Positions 8,156 through 45,201 of a stretch of DNA of 49,389 nucleotides are shown in pieces; within the stretch, counting starts at the first letter, position 1; the number at the start of each line of letters is the position of its first letter. Position numbers and translations under genes: made by a program. The stretch comes from a virus. Taxonomy: Duplodnaviria > Heunggongvirae > Uroviricota > Caudoviricetes. The notes beneath the pieces are model-generated. The model was given only the letters and a program-made list of their open reading frames with translations. It was not told where the DNA came from and ran no database searches. The DNA is taken from positions 1-49,389 of IMG/VR virus record IMGVR_UViG_2851966386_000003; one strand, given 5' to 3'.

Positions 8156-8416
8156 ATGAATCACATCGAATTTATTGAGAAGAACGTCCGCGAGGAACTT
8201 CTTCGCCAGGGCTTCACGCAAGCAGTGGCTCAGGGGGGGGCATACCAGGCGGTCGGTATGTACAAGCGGATGTCACAGGCAAGCCGAAAAGGGGGAATGT
8301 TTGACGATGTTATGCGACACGCAAAGTTATGGGCAGAGAAGCAGACCAGCGCAGCTGAACGCCGGGAAGCAAAGCGTAAAGTGCGAAAGGGCGGCGACCA
8401 GGCTGGGTTGTTCTGA
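8156..8416 (+). CDS. Hypothetical phage protein
   Basis: 86-aa ORF between regulatory genes and replication protein O. Confidence 0.4.
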   Translation: MNHIEFIEKNVREELLRQGFTQAVAQGGAYQAVGMYKRMSQASRKGGMFDDVMRHAKLWAEKQTSAAERREAKRKVRKGGDQAGLF

Positions 8417-28639: not shown

Positions 28640-29593
28640 ATGTCTACGACCGTAAACAACGACCTGATTATCTATGATGACCTCGCGCAGACTGCGTTTC
28701 TTGAGCGTCGCCAGGATAATCTGGAAGTCTTCAACGCCGCTTCAAACGGCGCAATCATTCTCGACAACGAACTGATCGAGGGTGATTTTCGCAAGCGCAC
28801 CTTTTATAAAGTTGGTGGCTCTATCGAATCGCGCGACGTTAACTCCACCGACACGGTAACGAGTAAAAAAATCGGTGCCGGCGAATCTGTCAGCGTCAAG
28901 GCACCATGGAAATACGGCCCGTATGAAACCACTGAGGAGGCGTTTAAACGTCGGGGTCGCGACGTTAGCGAATTCTCCGAGGTGATCGGCGTCGACGTCG
29001 CTGATGCGACGCTTGAAGGTTATATCAAGTATGCCCTTCAGGGACTGGTTGCAGCCATTGGCGCAAATGCTGACATGACGGTATCCGCGGATATTGCCAC
29101 TGATGGTAAGAAAACGCTGACCCGTGGCCTGCGTAAATACGGCGATAAATTTAACCGTGTTGCGCTGTTCGTTATGCATTCCACGACCTATTTCGACATT
29201 GTTGATCAGGCTATCGACAACAAAATTTACGAAGAAGCTGGCGTGGTGGTTTATGGCGGACAGCCAGGCACGCTGGGTAAACCGGTGCTGGTAACTGACA
29301 CCATGCCGGTTGACGCGATTCTTGGTCTGGTGGCTGGTGCGGTATCCGTAACAGAATCACAGGCTCCGGGCTTCCGTTCCTACGATATCAACAACCAGGA
29401 AAACCTTGCCATTGGTTATCGCGCAGAGGGTACGGTTAACGTTGAACTGCTGGGTTACAGCTGGGATGAAACGAAGGGCGCTAACCCTGACCTGACCAAA
29501 ATCGGCACTGGCGCGAACTGGAAGAAACATTTCACTAGTAACAAATCCACTGCAGGCGTACTGATTAAGCTGGAAGCCCCTGCGGGGGAGTAA
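28640..29593 (+). CDS. Major capsid protein (putative)
   Basis: 317-aa ORF after scaffold-like gene. Confidence 0.65.
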   Translation: MSTTVNNDLIIYDDLAQTAFLERRQDNLEVFNAASNGAIILDNELIEGDFRKRTFYKVGGSIESRDVNSTDTVTSKKIGAGESVSVKAPWKYGPYETTEEAFKRRGRDVSEFSEVIGVDVADATLEGYIKYALQGLVAAIGANADMTVSADIATDGKKTLTRGLRKYGDKFNRVALFVMHSTTYFDIVDQAIDNKIYEEAGVVVYGGQPGTLGKPVLVTDTMPVDAILGLVAGAVSVTESQAPGFRSYDINNQENLAIGYRAEGTVNVELLGYSWDETKGANPDLTKIGTGANWKKHFTSNKSTAGVLIKLEAPAGE

Positions 29594-29874: not shown

Positions 29875-29914
29875 CTGACGGGGCGAAAGCCCCGTTTCTT
29901 TTGGTGAGGATCCG

Positions 29915-30310
29915 ATGACCGTTTATATAACAATCCAGGACGTTGACGGGTTGCTGGGGGATACCTGGGCTGCTGCTGACAAAAAGGGTAAAGCCGTGCT
30001 ACAGGCAAATACCTGGATGACGGCGCTGAACCTTCAGGATATCGAGCAGGAGGATATCCCCGAAGAAGTTAAGCAGGCCGGAGCGTTTATCGCTTCCGTA
30101 GCCGCTGCAGGCAATCTGTATCAGCAAAAAACAGATTCCGGCGTGGTGACGAGCAAAAGCGTTGAGGCCGATGATGTGAAGGTTTCCCGCACTTTTGCCG
30201 AGCTCTCAACCACCAGCACTGAATTACTCGATCCTGATTTGCAGCTGGCGCTGGATATGCTCAAACCGTGGATGATTAACCCTTTCCAGACGTTCTTTGT
30301 GAGGGCGTGA
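29915..30310 (+). CDS. Head-tail connector/adaptor protein (putative)
   Basis: Position between capsid and tail genes. Confidence 0.4.
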   Translation: MTVYITIQDVDGLLGDTWAAADKKGKAVLQANTWMTALNLQDIEQEDIPEEVKQAGAFIASVAAAGNLYQQKTDSGVVTSKSVEADDVKVSRTFAELSTTSTELLDPDLQLALDMLKPWMINPFQTFFVRA

Positions 30311-30311
30311 T

Positions 30312-30695
30312 ATGGGAATTCGTGACGAGCTACAAACCGAAGTTGCCGCGGCGTTCGATACCGACCTGCAGGATGCCGTTAAGGATTTCACTGGGTCATA
30401 CACCGTTCGGGGTGCCTGGGATCCGGTGACGGAAACCGGCACTGAAACGCAGGTGACTTACTCGGGGCGTGGAGTGCTGGCGCGCTATAAACTGCGCCGT
30501 ATCGATGGCGTTAACATTCTGCATGGTGATGTGAAGCTAACCGCCCTGGTTAACGAGGTGACTGATAAGCCGGCCGTCGGGCATATCATCACCGCACCGG
30601 ATCCGATTACGGGTGAGCTTCAGCGCTACGAGGTCATCACTGCCGCTGCTGATTCTGCCGGTGCTGCGTACTCCATCCAGTTACGGAGGGCATGA
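30312..30695 (+). CDS. Head closure / neck protein (putative)
   Basis: Position; coupled to flanking genes. Confidence 0.4.
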   Translation: MGIRDELQTEVAAAFDTDLQDAVKDFTGSYTVRGAWDPVTETGTETQVTYSGRGVLARYKLRRIDGVNILHGDVKLTALVNEVTDKPAVGHIITAPDPITGELQRYEVITAAADSAGAAYSIQLRRA

Positions 30696-30696
30696 T

Positions 30697-31248
30697 ATGG
30701 CAAAGGGTTGGAATATTGATCCGTCAGCATTCGCCGGGCTGGTGGCCGACGATGTGAGGTTAAGTCAACGAACGATCGCCACAGAGCTGCTGAATGAAAT
30801 TGTTCAACGGTCGCCGGTAGGAAACCCGGAGCTGTGGGCCATCAACGCGACCGCGGTTCAATACAACAAAGCTGTTGGGGAATGGAACGAATCTCTTTAT
30901 GCCGATCCTGCTAACCTGACCAAAACCGGAAGGCTCAGGAAGAAAGTCCGTGTTAATGACAGCATGGATATCAGGCAGCCGGCTGAGTATCGCGCAGGAA
31001 CCTTCAGGGCATCGCATTTTGTTAGCATCGGCGAACCCGATCACTCCGTCCCGACCGAACCGGATCCCCGCGGGACAATGACGTTTCTTAATGGCAAAAA
31101 TATCATTGACCAGGCGCCAGCCTACTCGGTGATTTACATCCAGTCGAATCTGCCTTACTCCGTGCCCCTGGAGAATGGTCACTCAACGCAGGCGCCGACA
31201 GGCGTCTATGCCGTCTCGTTTAATGGTGTGATTCAGGCCTACAAATGA
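30697..31248 (+). CDS. Neck / tail completion protein (putative)
   Basis: Internal ATG 30697 six nt after GGAGGG, coupled to previous stop. Confidence 0.45.
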   Translation: MAKGWNIDPSAFAGLVADDVRLSQRTIATELLNEIVQRSPVGNPELWAINATAVQYNKAVGEWNESLYADPANLTKTGRLRKKVRVNDSMDIRQPAEYRAGTFRASHFVSIGEPDHSVPTEPDPRGTMTFLNGKNIIDQAPAYSVIYIQSNLPYSVPLENGHSTQAPTGVYAVSFNGVIQAYK

Positions 31249-31637
31249 CCTTCACAGAAATCAGAAACGCTGTCATTTCCCGAATGGCGGCACAGACCGC
31301 TATTGCCTCTGATGCGGTGGATTATCCCAATGGTCCGGTATTTGATCCCAGTAACCGCGATATCTGGGCCCGCCTCACCAACATTGCAGGACAGGCTGGC
31401 GCAACCGAGATCGGGGACGGGCCGGTCGTCCACAGGACGGGCTTACTCATCATTCAGCTGTTTGTACCGGTCGGTTCCGGGACGTTGCTTATCTCCCGAA
31501 CGGCCGATCAGCTAACGGAGCTATTCGAGTTTAAGGACGACGGGAAGCTGAGTTATTTCGCCGTTTCTGCTGTGCCGGCAGGTGAGACCGATGGCTGGTT
31601 ACAGCTCAATCTTCAAATTCCTTATCGCGCTCTGTAG
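31245..31637 (+). CDS. Tail terminator / tail completion protein (putative)
   Basis: Position directly upstream of major tail gene; ATGA overlap. Confidence 0.45.
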   Translation: MTFTEIRNAVISRMAAQTAIASDAVDYPNGPVFDPSNRDIWARLTNIAGQAGATEIGDGPVVHRTGLLIIQLFVPVGSGTLLISRTADQLTELFEFKDDGKLSYFAVSAVPAGETDGWLQLNLQIPYRAL

Positions 31638-31660
31638 CGCACAAAAAACAGGAGGCTCCT

Positions 31661-32833
31661 GTGAGCTCAGGTGCAAAAGTAGTAGCCGCGTTTATTCGTG
31701 AGACAACGCCAGGTATCACGCCAACAGCAGGGGCGTGGAACCTGCTGCGGCGTTCTTCATTTGGTCTGAAACCAACGCAGAACACCAACGACAATGACGA
31801 AATCGCGGGTGACCGCATGGCGCAGGGTGTTTCACGCGGCACAGTGGATGTCGGGGGTGATGTCGGCACGCGGTTTCGCTGGAATCAGCATGACGATTTT
31901 CTTGCCAGCTGTTTCGGCGCCGAATGGGTAAATAACGTGCTGACGATGGGTAATGGTCGTATTACGTTCTCCGTGGCGACCTTTGCCAGTGATGTGGGGA
32001 TCGCCCAGATTGCCCGCGGTTGCCAGGTTGGTACCTTCCAGATGGAAATCCCGGCCGATGGTGATATCACTGCAACCATTACGTTTGCAGGGCTGGACTG
32101 GGAGACGAAGGGGGACGATACCAGCTATTTCACCACGCCGGTTGATTTGGCGGGGGAGCTGCGTTACTCCTTCAAGGAGGTCACGAATATCCGGCTGAAT
32201 GGTGTTGATGGCGGGACAGGTTTCTGCGTCGACACTTTTAACATCCAGTTCAACAACAATATGCAGACTCAGCGCTGCATCGGTACCGGTTCGGCGTTCG
32301 CCGGCGCAAACATTCCGACAACCTTTACCCCGTCAGGTCAAATCACGCTGTCATGGTCAAAGGCTGCATGGGAGGTTTACAAAAAAACGTTCACCGGCGA
32401 AACGGTGCCGTTTAGCTTCACCCTGGAGAATGCTGAAGGCGCCTATACCTTCGATTTCCCGGAAGTGCAGATCTCCGGCGACTGGCCGGATGCGGGGAGC
32501 ACTGACATTGTTCAGGTTCAGCTGGATATCACCGCGGCCAATACTCCGCCAACTATCACCCGCGTCCCCAAAGTGCCGGCGACGGCAATCAGTGTTGCGC
32601 CAGCCACTTCAACTGGAGCAGTGGGATCTACTGTGACGTTAACCGCCACGCTTACGCCAGCTGATTCAACTGATACCGTCCAGTGGACGTCATCGGATCC
32701 GACTATCGCCAGCGTGGTTTCTACCGGGCAGAAAACAGCGAAAGCCACACGTAACGCAGCCGGCACTGCAACAATCACCGGTAAGGCCCGCACCTTTACG
32801 GCAACGTCTGAAATCACCGTTACCGCGCCTTAA
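31661..32833 (+). CDS. Major tail (tube) protein with C-terminal Ig-like domain
   Basis: 390-aa product; C-terminal ~90 aa Thr/Ala/Ser-rich Ig-like region; followed by chaperone G/GT. Confidence 0.7.
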   Translation: MSSGAKVVAAFIRETTPGITPTAGAWNLLRRSSFGLKPTQNTNDNDEIAGDRMAQGVSRGTVDVGGDVGTRFRWNQHDDFLASCFGAEWVNNVLTMGNGRITFSVATFASDVGIAQIARGCQVGTFQMEIPADGDITATITFAGLDWETKGDDTSYFTTPVDLAGELRYSFKEVTNIRLNGVDGGTGFCVDTFNIQFNNNMQTQRCIGTGSAFAGANIPTTFTPSGQITLSWSKAAWEVYKKTFTGETVPFSFTLENAEGAYTFDFPEVQISGDWPDAGSTDIVQVQLDITAANTPPTITRVPKVPATAISVAPATSTGAVGSTVTLTATLTPADSTDTVQWTSSDPTIASVVSTGQKTAKATRNAAGTATITGKARTFTATSEITVTAP

Positions 32834-32886
32834 TTTACCTGGCCCGTTCTGCAGTCATCGCGGATCGGGCTTTTTTGGGAGTCTTT

Positions 32887-33369
32887 ATGCTGATTATTTC
32901 TTCTCAAATTGATTTGAACGGAGAACGCTGGTTTTTCCCTTACAAAAAGCCGGCAGGCAGTAAAAAGAAATTCACGCCGGAAGACGAGGCGCTATTTAAA
33001 CTCCGTCTGCTGGTGGCCAGTAGCGAGAATCCGCAATACCGCTCACGCAATGCGCTGGTGCGGCGCCATATCGACAAAATGGACGCGAGCTACCAGGTCG
33101 GTACGGATGCTTTCGATCTCGCCAGTGTGGGAGAGATTGACTCGGTTGATGATCTTCTCATCGACAATTGCGCGCGCTTTCTTCTGAGAGACTGGGAAGG
33201 CGTGGGGGAGCTGGTGGATGGTACGGAGACGGCGGTAACTTACACGCCGGAGCGTGGTGTTGCGTTACTGAAGCAAAACCCCTCTCTGTACTGGCTTATT
33301 CTGGCTGAGGCGGCGGACATTGCTCAGGGTAAGGAGCAGCAGACTCAGGAAACCGTAAAAAAGCCATAG
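32887..33369 (+). CDS. Tail assembly chaperone (gpG-like)
   Basis: Position between major tail and tape measure; ends at slippery AAAAAAG; GGGAG SD. Confidence 0.65.
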   Translation: MLIISSQIDLNGERWFFPYKKPAGSKKKFTPEDEALFKLRLLVASSENPQYRSRNALVRRHIDKMDASYQVGTDAFDLASVGEIDSVDDLLIDNCARFLLRDWEGVGELVDGTETAVTYTPERGVALLKQNPSLYWLILAEAADIAQGKEQQTQETVKKP

Positions 33370-33704
33370 AGGCCCAAAAGTGGCTAAAGGAATTCGCCGG
33401 CGAGCAGGGCGAGAAAGCAAAGTGGCGCAGGGAGAAACTAAATCTCTCGCCCATTCCGGAGCCTGAAATCGATGCAGTCACTGGGGAGATCCTCAACGCT
33501 TACGCCATGATATCGCGCGGCAGGAAATATGCTGGCATGGCCGGAGTGCCGCTCCCTCTATCCCTGAACGATATCGAGCTTTACCTGGCATCGCGCACCA
33601 TCCTGATCGACCGCATTGAGTTTGACGCAGCGATACTGGCCCTCGATGATGCCTGGAGGGATGAGTGGGCCGAAGAGCAGAAAAGACAGGCGAAAGTGAA
33701 GTAG
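33363..33704 (+). CDS. -1 frame extension of tail assembly chaperone (T portion of G-T fusion)
   Basis: Slippery heptamer A-AAA-AAG at 33357-33363; -1 frame open without stop from 33363 to 33704. Confidence 0.6.
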   Translation, partial: AIEAQKWLKEFAGEQGEKAKWRREKLNLSPIPEPEIDAVTGEILNAYAMISRGRKYAGMAGVPLPLSLNDIELYLASRTILIDRIEFDAAILALDDAWRDEWAEEQKRQAKVK

Positions 33705-33771
33705 TCATATCATTGTCTCCATCTATTCCTGTGCTAACCTGTGTGCAAATGTTAATGATGGGGATGGGGAT

Positions 33772-34134
33772 GTGGAACCGCTTTTAGGTTTTATGCTTTT
33801 TGGGCTAGCAGTTATTGTTGTAGCAGTTATTGCTGCAAAACGAAATGGGATAGGTATTGCGTTCCTTTACCTTATTGGTATGTGCGCTATAGGCTTCGGC
33901 TTGGTCGTTTTAGCATCAAATATCACAAATGGAAACGGCGTTATCGCTGGTTTTACTGCATTTATTGCGCCGATTCTTGGTCTTCTTATTGTCTTATCAT
34001 CGTCTACATCTGAACGCCGAGCAGTGCTTAATGGTGAGTCTGGTGAGTATAAAAAATGTCCTTTCTGCGCCGAGCCTATCCGCAAAGAGGCCATTAAATG
34101 TAAACACTGTGGAAGTGATATTGAACAGACCTGA
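33772..34134 (+). CDS. Membrane protein with C-terminal zinc-ribbon (moron)
   Basis: Three hydrophobic helices then CPFCAEPI...CKHCGSD; own terminator; start uncertain (GTG 33772 or ATG 33793). Confidence 0.5.
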   Translation: MEPLLGFMLFGLAVIVVAVIAAKRNGIGIAFLYLIGMCAIGFGLVVLASNITNGNGVIAGFTAFIAPILGLLIVLSSSTSERRAVLNGESGEYKKCPFCAEPIRKEAIKCKHCGSDIEQT

Positions 34135-34189
34135 GTATTACCAGTGAACCCGTTTCGATAATATAACTTTCAAGATATTGTATTCGTAA

Positions 34190-34217
34190 AAAAACCTCGC
34201 TACGGCGGGGTTTTTTA
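34190..34217 (+). terminator. Rho-independent terminator
   Basis: cctcgc tacg gcgggg followed by ttttttatt. Confidence 0.6.
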
Positions 34218-34235
34218 TTGCCCGGAGATAGCTAA

Positions 34236-37115
34236 ATGACAGAACAAACCTCCCGCCTGGCCATTGTGATTGATAGCTCCGGGGCAGAAAAGCAGGCTGA
34301 CAATCTCGCAACTGCACTGGTAAAAATGACGCAGGCAGGCGAACGTGCTGTTACCAGTGCAGGGAAAGTGACAAAAGCTACTGATGAAGAAAAACAGTCT
34401 CTTTCTGAACTCTTAGATCGAATTGACCCGGTAAACGCAGCTCTGAATAAACTGGATAAACAACAGCAAGATCTTGCGAAATTCAAATCAAAGGGGATGG
34501 TAGATATCGATACATTCGATCTTTATTCAAAGAAAATCGAGGAAACACGAAACAGGCTAACTGGATTTCGCGACGACCTTGGCAAAACCGGACAATCTGC
34601 CGCACAGACTGCCTTTGCCATGCGCATGATCCCAGCGCAGATGACTGACATTATTGTCGGCTTATCTACGGGGCAGTCGCCGTTTATGGTGCTTATGCAG
34701 CAGGGCGGGCAGTTGAAAGATATGTTCGGCGGTATTGGCCCCGCGATTAAAGGTGTTGGCGGGTATGTGCTGGGGTTGATTAATCCTGTCACTCTGGCTG
34801 CCGCGGCTGTCGGTGTTCTTGGGCTGGCCTATTACAAAGGCTCTCAGGAGCAAGGCGAGTTCTATAAGTCATTGACCCTTAACGGTAATCTGGTTGGTAA
34901 AACCACCGGGCAACTAGCAGATATGGCCGCTCGGGTTTCAGTAGTTGCCAACTCAACTACTGGCGTGACCGCAGCCACACTTAACCAGATAGTTTCATCC
35001 GGGAAAGTGGCTGCAGAGTCATTGGAACGAGTAACAACTGCCGTGGTTGAAATCAGTGAAGCCACAGGCATCGCCACTGAAAAGCTGGTGGGTGATTTCA
35101 ACGACATTGCTGCTGACCCGGTTGCGGCCATTACAAAACTTAACGACCAGTACCACTTTCTGACACTGGCAACCTACAACCAGATTAAAGCACTGCAGGA
35201 TGAAGGTAATCAGCAGGATGCTGCACGGGTGGCTACTGATGCTTACGCCAATGCCATGCAGCAGCGTGCGAACGATATTCATCAGAATTTGGGGATTCTT
35301 GAACGTGCTTGGGACTCGCTTGCTAAAACGGCTAAAGGAGCATGGGATGCCATGCTTGATATAGGTCGCGAGCAAACCGGCACCGAGCGGATCTCTCAAA
35401 TTCGTAAGGAATTAGATTGGATAGATAAGGCTGCAGGCGGGAAGCTATTTTTTGGTGGAAGAAAGGCTGAGCTCGAAGATGAGCTAAATAATCTGCAATC
35501 TCAAATCACAACAGAAGGCGTTTTAACTGAAATAATCAGTAGTCATGACAAAGCTGAACAGCAAAGAATTAAAACGCAGCAGGAAGCAGATCGCGTTAAC
35601 CAGCAATATCTGAGCAATGCGGATAAGCGCAATAAAGCCATTAAGCAGCAAAGCGAGTTCCTGAAGGCAGGCGCAATTACTGCAGAGCAATATTCAAAAA
35701 ATGTTTCTCGTATTAACGAGATGTACAAAGATCCGAAACCACCCAAGACGCCAAAGAGTAAAGCATATACCGAGGACGCAGCAACCCGGCTGCTTGATCA
35801 GATAAACCAGCAGACTGCTGCTATGCAGTCCCAGCTGGATGCCAGTGACAAGCTTAACAGCTCGACACAGGCGCGGATTAAGTTCGAACAGCAAATTGCT
35901 GACCTCAAGTCTAAAACGCAGCTCACCGCTGACCAGAAGTCGATCCTTTCCCGTTCAGATGAAATCCTCCAGGCATATAAGCAGCAGGAGGCACTGCAAA
36001 ATTCCGTAAAAACCCTGGACGATTACCGCAAGATGCAGGAACAGGTAAAGACGAAAGATAAGCGGACCAACGATCTGCTTAAAACCCGTCTTGAACTGCT
36101 GGAGAAGGCCAAAGCAACCGGGCAACTTAAACCCGGTGAATATGCAAAAACGCGGGCAGATATTTATCAAAACACCGATATGCAACTGCCCTCGACGGTT
36201 CGTAATGTTGTAGGAAACCTGACACCCACAGGAGGGCGACTCTCTGGAACTTTTGAGGGGATGCAGGGGCAAATCAACGAATATGATCAGGCTCAGCAAG
36301 AGCTCCAGCGCTGGCTGGCAGCTCAGGAGGAAGCTTATGCGAAGGCCGGTGAAATAACTGCCGAGGGTGAGGCCAGAATGACCTCTATTCGTCAACGTGC
36401 GGCGGATGCAAATCAGGTCATAGAGGCTCAGAAAAACACCATCATATCTGCGGCCACGCAGTCCTTGTTTGATAGCACCGCCGAAATCATGCGAACGGGG
36501 TTTGGTGAGCAATCGGCAATCTACAAGGTCGCTTTTGCTGCGAGCAAGGCATTCGCTATCGCGGACTCGATGGTGAAAATCCAGCAGGCTATAGCAAGCG
36601 GTGCAGTAAGCGCGCCTTATCCGGCCAACATCATCGCTATGGCCTCAATCGCTGCGCAGACTGCCAGTATCGTCTCAAATATCCAGGCTGTTTCAGGAGT
36701 TGGCTTCGCCTCCGGCGGTTACACCGGCCCCGGTGGTAAGTATCAGCCCGCGGGTATTGTTCACAAAGGTGAGTACGTCTTCGACCAGGCTTCAACGAAC
36801 CGGATCGGCGTGTCTCAGCTTGAGGCACTTCGAAATGGCCAACCGCTTGATGCAACTCTGGGGCGTACAGGGTTTGGTACTGGTGTTCAGAACGTTAACA
36901 GCGATAACCGTAGGCAAACAACTGTACACGCGCCGATTAATCAGGAGTTTCATCTCCAGGGTATTACTCCGGAGCAGTTGAGCGCTACACTCAATCAGAA
37001 TAATCGACTGCTTTCCAGGCAGTTAAAAGGTGAACTCACAAAGGAGGTTACCATGCCACAAGGGGCTTTTGGTAACGCTCTAAAAGGAAACTATACACGA
37101 CACGGTCCTAGGTAA
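34236..37115 (+). CDS. Tail tape measure protein
   Basis: 959-aa coiled-coil-rich product in canonical position after G/GT. Confidence 0.85.
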   Translation: MTEQTSRLAIVIDSSGAEKQADNLATALVKMTQAGERAVTSAGKVTKATDEEKQSLSELLDRIDPVNAALNKLDKQQQDLAKFKSKGMVDIDTFDLYSKKIEETRNRLTGFRDDLGKTGQSAAQTAFAMRMIPAQMTDIIVGLSTGQSPFMVLMQQGGQLKDMFGGIGPAIKGVGGYVLGLINPVTLAAAAVGVLGLAYYKGSQEQGEFYKSLTLNGNLVGKTTGQLADMAARVSVVANSTTGVTAATLNQIVSSGKVAAESLERVTTAVVEISEATGIATEKLVGDFNDIAADPVAAITKLNDQYHFLTLATYNQIKALQDEGNQQDAARVATDAYANAMQQRANDIHQNLGILERAWDSLAKTAKGAWDAMLDIGREQTGTERISQIRKELDWIDKAAGGKLFFGGRKAELEDELNNLQSQITTEGVLTEIISSHDKAEQQRIKTQQEADRVNQQYLSNADKRNKAIKQQSEFLKAGAITAEQYSKNVSRINEMYKDPKPPKTPKSKAYTEDAATRLLDQINQQTAAMQSQLDASDKLNSSTQARIKFEQQIADLKSKTQLTADQKSILSRSDEILQAYKQQEALQNSVKTLDDYRKMQEQVKTKDKRTNDLLKTRLELLEKAKATGQLKPGEYAKTRADIYQNTDMQLPSTVRNVVGNLTPTGGRLSGTFEGMQGQINEYDQAQQELQRWLAAQEEAYAKAGEITAEGEARMTSIRQRAADANQVIEAQKNTIISAATQSLFDSTAEIMRTGFGEQSAIYKVAFAASKAFAIADSMVKIQQAIASGAVSAPYPANIIAMASIAAQTASIVSNIQAVSGVGFASGGYTGPGGKYQPAGIVHKGEYVFDQASTNRIGVSQLEALRNGQPLDATLGRTGFGTGVQNVNSDNRRQTTVHAPINQEFHLQGITPEQLSATLNQNNRLLSRQLKGELTKEVTMPQGAFGNALKGNYTRHGPR

Positions 37116-37198
37116 GCTAAACTGCATTAGCTGAGACTTGATTAGGTAGGTAAGTCTAACAATCTGAGTAGGTGCAAGAAAACACAAGGATCTTATTA

Positions 37199-37534
37199 AT
37201 GGAAGCGTTGTTAACATTTACATTTAAAGACTTTATAGCTTTTATGATTCCTCTTTTTATTGGCGGACTTATCTTCAATAGGAGACGTAAACGTAAGGAG
37301 GTCCGAGTGAAGTTTTCATTTCTTTGGCTTGTTTTGATAGTCGGTGGAATTCTTGAAATATGCGATGATATCTACACAACTTATTCCTATAGGCATAATC
37401 ACTTATATAATAATGATACGCTTACAACCGTGTTTAACTATGATTTTGCAAAAATTGTTTTTTGTGGGGTTTTGATTTTTGTTTCTATTGCGCTTCTTCT
37501 TCAGGAGTTGCTTTTAAATAAGCAGTCACATTGA
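37199..37534 (+). CDS. AT-rich small membrane protein (moron)
   Basis: ATG 37199 eight nt after AAGGA; three hydrophobic helices; followed by ~310-bp AT-rich non-coding tract. Confidence 0.45.
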   Translation: MEALLTFTFKDFIAFMIPLFIGGLIFNRRRKRKEVRVKFSFLWLVLIVGGILEICDDIYTTYSYRHNHLYNNDTLTTVFNYDFAKIVFCGVLIFVSIALLLQELLLNKQSH

Positions 37535-37848: not shown

Positions 37849-38322
37849 ATGACTGATATCTACTACCCACATGACAGCCTCCCTATGCCATTACAGGAAG
37901 GATACGGATTTCAGCCTGTAAGCCCGTTAAAACGAACCCAGTTAACCACCGGTCGCGCGAGGCAAAGGCGAGCTTTTACGTCCACGCCGACGCAGGCCAG
38001 CATCACCTGGTTTATGGAAACCGATGCGCAGGGCCTGGCGTTTGAGTCCTGGTTCCGTGATGCGTTATCTGACGGGGCTGCATGGTTCATGATGAAGTTG
38101 CAGACGCCGTCAGGCATTAAGTTTTACAAATGCCGCTTCACAGATATTTATCAGGGACCGGTGCTAGTGCCCCCGATTTACTGGAAGTACACGGCGACGC
38201 TTGAATTATGGGAACGCCCCCTTGCTCCTGCCCCATGGGGTAATTACCCGGAATGGATCGTCGGCAGCTCACTGCTGGATATTGCGCTGAATAAGGAGTG
38301 GCCAAAGCATGACGCAGATTAA
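37849..38322 (+). CDS. Minor tail protein (gpM-like)
   Basis: Position after tape measure; loose motif resemblance to lambda M. Confidence 0.5.
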   Translation: MTDIYYPHDSLPMPLQEGYGFQPVSPLKRTQLTTGRARQRRAFTSTPTQASITWFMETDAQGLAFESWFRDALSDGAAWFMMKLQTPSGIKFYKCRFTDIYQGPVLVPPIYWKYTATLELWERPLAPAPWGNYPEWIVGSSLLDIALNKEWPKHDAD

Positions 38323-44880: not shown

Positions 44881-45201
44881 TCATTGAAGTATACATTTTT
44901 CTCGTACAGAGCTCTTTATGGTGATTTGTTGAGAAAATTCTGGCATTTCCATAATCTGTATTTCAGCCTGCTCTGCCCATGATTTTGATGATGAGGTATC
45001 CAGCGAAATAGGGTAATCACCTACGATGACCTTTGCATTGTCATCATAACGCACTGACAATGTTGCTTTTACCTGACCAGTGTCATCCTGACGGACGCTT
45101 TCAACTGCATAAATTAAATCTATTTCAACATCCTTGTCGCAGAGATATCCACCGAGATAATGAATCTGGACTGTTTTTAATACTGACAATTTAAATGACA
45201 T
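44881..45201 (-). CDS. Fibre-associated protein co-transcribed with fibre 2
   Basis: 106-aa ORF starting 10 nt after fibre 2 stop; AAGGAA SD. Confidence 0.45.
   Translation of the reverse strand: MSFKLSVLKTVQIHYLGGYLCDKDVEIDLIYAVESVRQDDTGQVKATLSVRYDDNAKVIVGDYPISLDTSSSKSWAEQAEIQIMEMPEFSQQITIKSSVREKCILQ

Follow-up and report, generated by a model that had tools for sequence, protein, structure and literature searches.

Overlapping reading frames in the tail region of a phage genome may reflect two products made from one start by ribosomal frameshifting, and the locus described here raises the question of whether this is so for a gene, G, that ends in GTA AAA AAG CCA TAG and overlaps an open frame, T, lying one base back. 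The locus is part of a stretch of viral DNA of 49,389 nucleotides (Caudoviricetes), which is termed the window below. A reading made from the sequence alone had taken it for a canonical -1 programmed frameshift site of a G/GT tail assembly chaperone, and this is supported by where the gene lies and what it encodes, by the relation of the frames, by the slippery motif and by conservation among relatives. With high confidence, the site can be regarded as one at which ribosomes undergo a programmed -1 frameshift, and the gene as that of a tail assembly chaperone in a temperate siphovirus of the Klebsiella type.

The ending of G and the heptamer A-AAA-AAG lie exactly where the sequence-only reading had placed them. 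Read in frame from the ATG at 32887, positions 33340-33369 are CAG ACT CAG GAA ACC GTA AAA AAG CCA TAG, the last five codons beginning at 33355 (GTA), 33358 (AAA), 33361 (AAG), 33364 (CCA) and 33367 (TAG). The claimed 342 nt of open -1 frame were also found, as 113 sense codons and a TAG from 33363 to 33704. Upstream, this frame is closed by a TAA at 33330-33332, and it is then open from 33333 to the TAG at 33702-33704. The overlap, within which a shift is possible, measures 37 nt and contains exactly one X XXY YYZ heptamer. Conceptual translation across the shift gives a protein, GT, of 159 + 113 = 272 aa with the junction ...ETVKK/AIEAQKW..., and production of this fusion is predicted. In the window, 48 codons without a possible start codon follow the heptamer in the -1 frame, the first ATG, GTG or TTG being found at 33507. 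The T extension is, on this reading of the frames, reachable by the shift only. The coordinates of the features are collected in the table.

Table. Features of the G/T locus and of the neighbouring head and tail genes in the window.
Feature	Coordinates	Strand	Basis or remarks
Major head protein gene	28640-29593		
Head-tail adaptor, head closure, tail completion and tail terminator genes	between major head and tail tube genes		PHROGs
Tail tube (major tail) protein gene, 390 aa, directly 5' of G	31661..32833	+	Pfam Phage_tube_2 (E 1.2e-33) and Big_2 (Ig domain); phrog_290 (E 3.5e-133)
Ribosome-binding site GGGAG, 5 nt 5' of the G start codon	32877..32881	+	direct sequence reading
Gene G, tail assembly chaperone, 160 aa, product of standard decoding	32887..33369	+	160 codons
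Slippery heptamer A AAA AAG, in the X XXY YYZ phase of G	33357..33363	+	sequence and relatives
T extension, 113 codons and TAG, -1 frame	33363..33704	+	translation
ATG-initiated ORF, 65 aa; a separate hypothetical protein in close GenBank relatives	33507..33704	+	phrog_1189
Tape measure protein gene, 959 aa	34236..37115	+	Pfam TMP_2 (E 3.3e-76) and TMP_4; phrog_24 (E 4.8e-243)

The heptamer by itself is not enriched, since AAAAAAG occurs 16 times on the two strands of the window against 10.9 +/- 3.1 expected from shuffles. An open frame of 113 codons is uncommon, appearing in 177 of 20,000 composition shuffles (0.9%) and in 0.67% of the -1 frames drawn from within long ORFs. Ordinary gene overlaps also give long -1 ORFs after gene ends, however, so that length alone proves little. 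The XXXYYYZ sites of the window were therefore filtered for a zero frame with at least 80 open codons upstream and a stop within 40 codons, and for a -1 frame continuing for at least 60 codons further. Seven of 510 sites passed, and in only three of the seven does the -1 frame open just 5' of the heptamer. Two of these, CCCCCCC at 8239 and TTTAAAT at 45195, both on the minus strand, have a similar topology and were rejected, being antisense to real genes or nested in an 845-aa gene; with these two spurious, the site at 33357 is unique in the window. What makes the site non-random is the combination of its features, together with an arrangement that is completely conserved in relatives.

The identity of G points in the same direction. 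It matches phrog_313, annotated as 'Tail assembly chaperone', with an E-value of 7e-39 over profile positions 21-149 of 258, and is related by homology or by fold to recognised tail assembly chaperones. When the conceptual fusion is used in place of G, the match grows to positions 21-253 and the score rises from 134.9 to 150.2 bits, from which it follows that phrog_313 already holds G-T fusions whose C-terminal half is homologous to this T. Neither G nor GT matched a Pfam-A family (E <= 0.01) or an NCBIfam family, and a search of the fusion against the sequences of solved structures (PDB) returned nothing meaningful. A precomputed assignment to PF27119.1 is listed for homologues in a large database; this model is not in the Pfam set searched here. 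By sequence, the protein is assigned to phrog_313 and not to the lambda gpG or gpT families.

The surroundings are those expected of a siphovirus. The nearest relatives of the window are temperate Klebsiella pneumoniae phages and prophages; its best megablast match, ST16-OXA48phi5.1, is 96.5% identical over 84% of a query spanning 31600-34300. Genes follow one another in the typical order of head, connectors, terminator, tail tube, G, T, an inserted small gene, tape measure and minor tail proteins; a relative of the tail tube gene is named 'tail protein' in MK416013. The G/T pair is thus placed between the tail tube and tape measure genes, and the tape measure protein is the presumed client of G and GT. 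It does not lie directly 5' of the tape measure gene, as the inserted gene (33772-34134) separates T from it.

Relatives of the locus provide further evidence. From genome and viral contig collections 200 related loci were gathered, which comprise 143 different G..T DNA sequences, the most divergent about 40% identical in G. A first scan of viral contigs had returned relatives at 96-99% identity only, and divergent queries were required for diversity; the window protein was used together with three divergent homologues (P0117, P0096 and P0070). In all 200 loci the frame of T is -1 with respect to G. An in-phase slippery heptamer stands at the homologous codon in every one of the 143 distinct sequences, as A AAA AAG in 133 and as G GGA AAG in ten. 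The stop codon of G, on the other hand, is variable, lying 0, 1, 7 or 25 codons after the heptamer (1 or 7 in most of the family). As the stop moves while heptamer and frame stay constant, it is the slippery site and the -1 frame that selection maintains, and not the end of G. A swap between two known shifty heptamers, with the neighbouring codons unchanged, is what selection for slipperiness leaves as its comparative signature.

The frames could also have been separated by an accident, a single G-T gene having been split by a one-nucleotide indel in a homopolymer, through mutation or sequencing error. Homopolymer runs are error-prone, and two database proteins, P0002 and P0070, are contiguous G-T fusions. 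The two-frame arrangement recurs, however, throughout the collected loci, which come from independent genomes and metagenomes. P0070, a Providencia protein, has the very junction predicted here (...TIKK/VIEAQKW...), but the loci found with it as query (L188, 100% identical in the best segment) read ATA AAA AAG TCA TAG with T in the -1 frame, so that P0070 looks like a conceptual frameshift product rather than the translation of an uninterrupted ORF. P0002, for its part, is an internal deletion variant in which the frames are joined 5' of the heptamer. A broken gene is consequently the least credible of the explanations considered, with next to no probability.

A second way in which G and T could be joined is slippage of the RNA polymerase, which by adding one A in the A6 run would generate a sub-population of mRNA with G and T in frame. 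There are six consecutive A residues at the site, and one extra A would lead to the same fusion protein. Examples of such slippage exist in phages and bacteria (PMC5009743). The run in the window is short, however, and in ten enterobacterial relatives and in the Acinetobacter relatives the heptamer is G GGA AAG, with runs of three only. Efficient transcriptional slippage normally requires runs of about 8-9 or more identical bases. As G GGA AAG is unable to support polymerase slippage and is a proven ribosomal site, transcriptional slippage is very improbable as the source of the fusion, and a ribosomal shift is preferred.

It might equally be supposed that no fusion is made, and that G and a separate 65-aa protein initiated at the ATG at 33507 are independent genes, with the heptamer a coincidence. 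Indeed, MK416013 and other records list two separate hypothetical proteins, and the T translation by itself matches phrog_1189, a family of 86 positions and unknown function that covers the T region only. The codon at 33507 is ATG in 105 of 143 distinct relatives; this methionine is thus not conserved, and the first possible start in the T frame of relatives lies anywhere between 9 and 82 codons beyond the heptamer, or is missing altogether, which argues against independent initiation. The sole Shine-Dalgarno (SD)-like run 5' of the ATG, GGGGAG at 33483-33488, is about 18 nt away. Retention of the heptamer, or its exchange for another slippery one, would moreover be unexpected of a coincidence.

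The 48 codons that precede the ATG also weigh against two genes. In a codon alignment of 139 T regions, entropies at codon positions 1, 2 and 3 of the -1 frame are 0.31, 0.26 and 0.96 from the heptamer (33363) to 33506, and 0.46, 0.40 and 1.12 from 33507 to the stop, so that on either side of 33507 the third position is about three times as variable as the first and second. Conservation of residues begins at the junction itself, with the pattern KK..EAQ.WL.EF.GE.G.KA.W.RE.L.LP..PEP. This coding signature, together with conservation from the junction onwards, indicates that the 48 start-less codons are protein-coding and can be reached only from G by a -1 shift. Independent genes are accordingly given very little credence, and the 65-aa ORF is most likely just the C-terminal part of the T extension.

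Several relatives depart from the common form of the locus. In L089-L095 and L103 the G frame continues for 25 codons past the heptamer, overlapping the start of T, and G acquires a basic C-terminal tail rich in Arg, Lys and Ser, e.g. SSKRRNGSRSSAARNRRKRAGAENS. Erwinia phage Gungnir39 (L202, OL944604), at 52% identity, has T in the -1 frame without a canonical heptamer; at about 1975-1992 it reads GTC GCA AAG TAA, with only A AAG left, right before the stop. This resembles the hexanucleotide shift sites of the CGA AAG type. The T region of Gungnir39 is annotated as two small hypothetical ORFs. In P0002 (E. coli, 240 aa), compared with L205, the internal deletion fuses G and T in frame at ...LAEA/GYDKKAIAAQRW...; judging from the sequence, a prophage carrying it would make a GT-like fusion only and no free G. 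P0002 probably stems from a defective prophage or from an error of assembly.

The locus can be compared with G/GT of phage lambda (Levin et al. 1993; Xu et al. 2004, 2013, 2014, as reviewed in PMC5009743), in which the two products are made at a molar ratio of about 30:1 (PMC5009743). The two share a pair of overlapping ORFs between the major tail and tape measure genes, a second ORF in the -1 frame without a start of its own near the overlap, and a slippery site that consists of the heptamer alone, close to where G ends. They differ in that the window protein has no Pfam match, and so no detectable similarity to gpG or gpT, in that the tube protein of the window belongs to the Phage_tube_2 family and carries an Ig domain, and in that an extra gene stands between T and the tape measure gene, a departure from the textbook layout. 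The lambda-like slip that had been proposed is supported, with a refinement as to the motif. The heptamer of the window is A AAA AAG, the motif of dnaX and of IS elements, and not lambda's own G GGA AAG; the latter is nevertheless present at the same codon in some relatives, which strengthens the G/GT reading. Both heptamers are among the most shift-prone in E. coli (PMC5009743).

Closer counterparts are found among other phages. YdaY-type proteins of E. coli siphoviruses and prophages, such as that of Escherichia phage vB_EcoS-666R9, are about 65% identical, and their loci have the ending ATA AAA AAG CCA TAG and a T frame at -1; unlike the locus as interpreted here, they are annotated just as 'putative protein YdaY' and a hypothetical protein. 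YdaY is presumably linked to the Rac prophage. In Acinetobacter phage vB_AbaS_TRS1 (NC_031098), TRS1_18/TRS1_19 include a protein homologous to the T part (about 30-34% identity), likewise located after the major tail gene, and the record gives the frameshift product as a joined CDS in two pieces; related Acinetobacter phages (about 30% identity) match the G part too. These relatives, vB_AbaS_TRS1 included, belong to another host clade and differ in having G GGA AAG about 27 codons 5' of the G stop. The HK97 tail assembly chaperone (PDB 2ob9) gives a weak match, with 7% sequence identity, and has 104 aa against the 160 of G in the window.

The dnaX gene of E. coli, which encodes gamma and tau, offers a comparison for the slippery site itself. 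Its heptamer is decoded by the same lysine tRNA as that of the window, and in dnaX an SD-like stimulator about 10 nt upstream and a strong downstream hairpin bring shifting to roughly 50%. The heptamers are identical, A AAA AAG (PMC5009743). The window differs in lacking a conserved hairpin. A downstream hairpin or pseudoknot was sought by folding 33330-33460 as a single sequence, which proved no better than shuffles (z 0.21), and by a consensus fold of 20 diverse relatives, which gave -2.47 kcal/mol with 0 compensatory pairs and no covariation. AAGGAG at 33331-33336 was considered as an SD-like stimulator and rejected, as it lies 20 nt 5' of the heptamer and is not conserved, reading AAAGAG or AAACAG in relatives. 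By these sequence comparisons, the site is a tail chaperone frameshift of the lambda G/GT class with the dnaX heptamer and without the dnaX stimulators.

A mechanism can be outlined on this basis, in which we infer the occurrence and efficiency of the shift and the roles of G and T. Most ribosomes would read G to its TAG and release the 160-aa chaperone. In a minority, the lysine tRNA or tRNAs on AAA AAG (33358-33363) would slip one base back, most likely in tandem, and re-pair with A AAA AA; the 113 codons from GCC (33363) up to the stop that ends at 33704 would then be decoded in the new frame, giving the 272-aa GT. On the lambda model, the tape measure protein may be coated by G and by the G part of GT, the T part may recruit the tail tube protein, and neither chaperone would be kept in the finished virion. 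As no conserved stimulatory RNA element was detected, low-efficiency shifting on the heptamer alone, as in lambda G/GT, is most likely; the GT:G ratio is probably low, a few per cent, and governed by the heptamer alone. The failure to find a stimulatory hairpin also means that the efficiency is not predictable.

The locus is an ordinary but real G/GT frameshift, involving neither new biology nor a new mechanism, and it matters chiefly for annotation. In the records of the closest Klebsiella phages and prophages, and in those of the 'YdaY' relatives from E. coli, G and a shortened T appear as hypothetical proteins, where the correct annotation would be a tail assembly chaperone and a 272-aa product of ribosomal slippage; GenBank records with two hypothetical proteins represent an annotation gap and not a discovery. 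It is conceivable, though improbable, that the family forms a natural series of G:GT ratio variants, an idea drawn from the occurrence of A AAA AAG, G GGA AAG or, in Gungnir39, C GCA AAG before TAA, of G tails of different lengths (0, 1, 7 or 25 codons) and of at least one lineage, P0002, whose deletion would leave the fusion only. Were the GT:G ratios measurably different, with all variants assembling tails, the strict ratio requirement of lambda would not be general.

Some features of the neighbourhood merit description. The inserted gene at 33772-34134 (plus strand, 120 aa) encodes a DUF2545-like membrane part and a C-terminal zinc ribbon, with Pfam matches at E-values of 4.5e-7 and 9e-7 and a match to phrog_31852 at 1e-65. 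GC content at the gene and its flanks (33705-34235) is 41-44%, compared with about 55-57% in neighbouring tail genes. Close relatives diverge at this gene, and megablast matches break into two pieces there. It looks like a moron in an unusual position; an effect of this membrane/zinc-ribbon gene on tape measure expression or tail assembly is a lesser possibility.

Between the stop codon of the tube gene (32833) and the start of G (32887), a terminator-like hairpin is located at 32838-32879 on the plus strand. It consists of an interrupted GC-rich stem followed by UUUUUU, and has a folding energy of -20 kcal/mol (z -2.66 against shuffles); the consensus scan did not pick it up. With the hairpin in this place, G, T and the tape measure gene may be transcribed less than the tube gene.

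On the 3' side of the tape measure gene lies a 120-aa ORF (37172-37534) that matches phrog_16178, of unknown function, and is followed by about 315 nt containing no plus-strand ORF of at least 40 aa before the next tail gene at 37849. In MK416013 (L001) and other GenBank relatives of the region 29900-31640, the connector genes are evidently misnamed, with spurious entries such as 'protein singed', 'glutamate 5-kinase' and 'electron transfer flavoprotein subunit beta'; according to PHROGs, the corresponding genes of the window are those for the head-tail adaptor, head closure, tail completion and tail terminator proteins.
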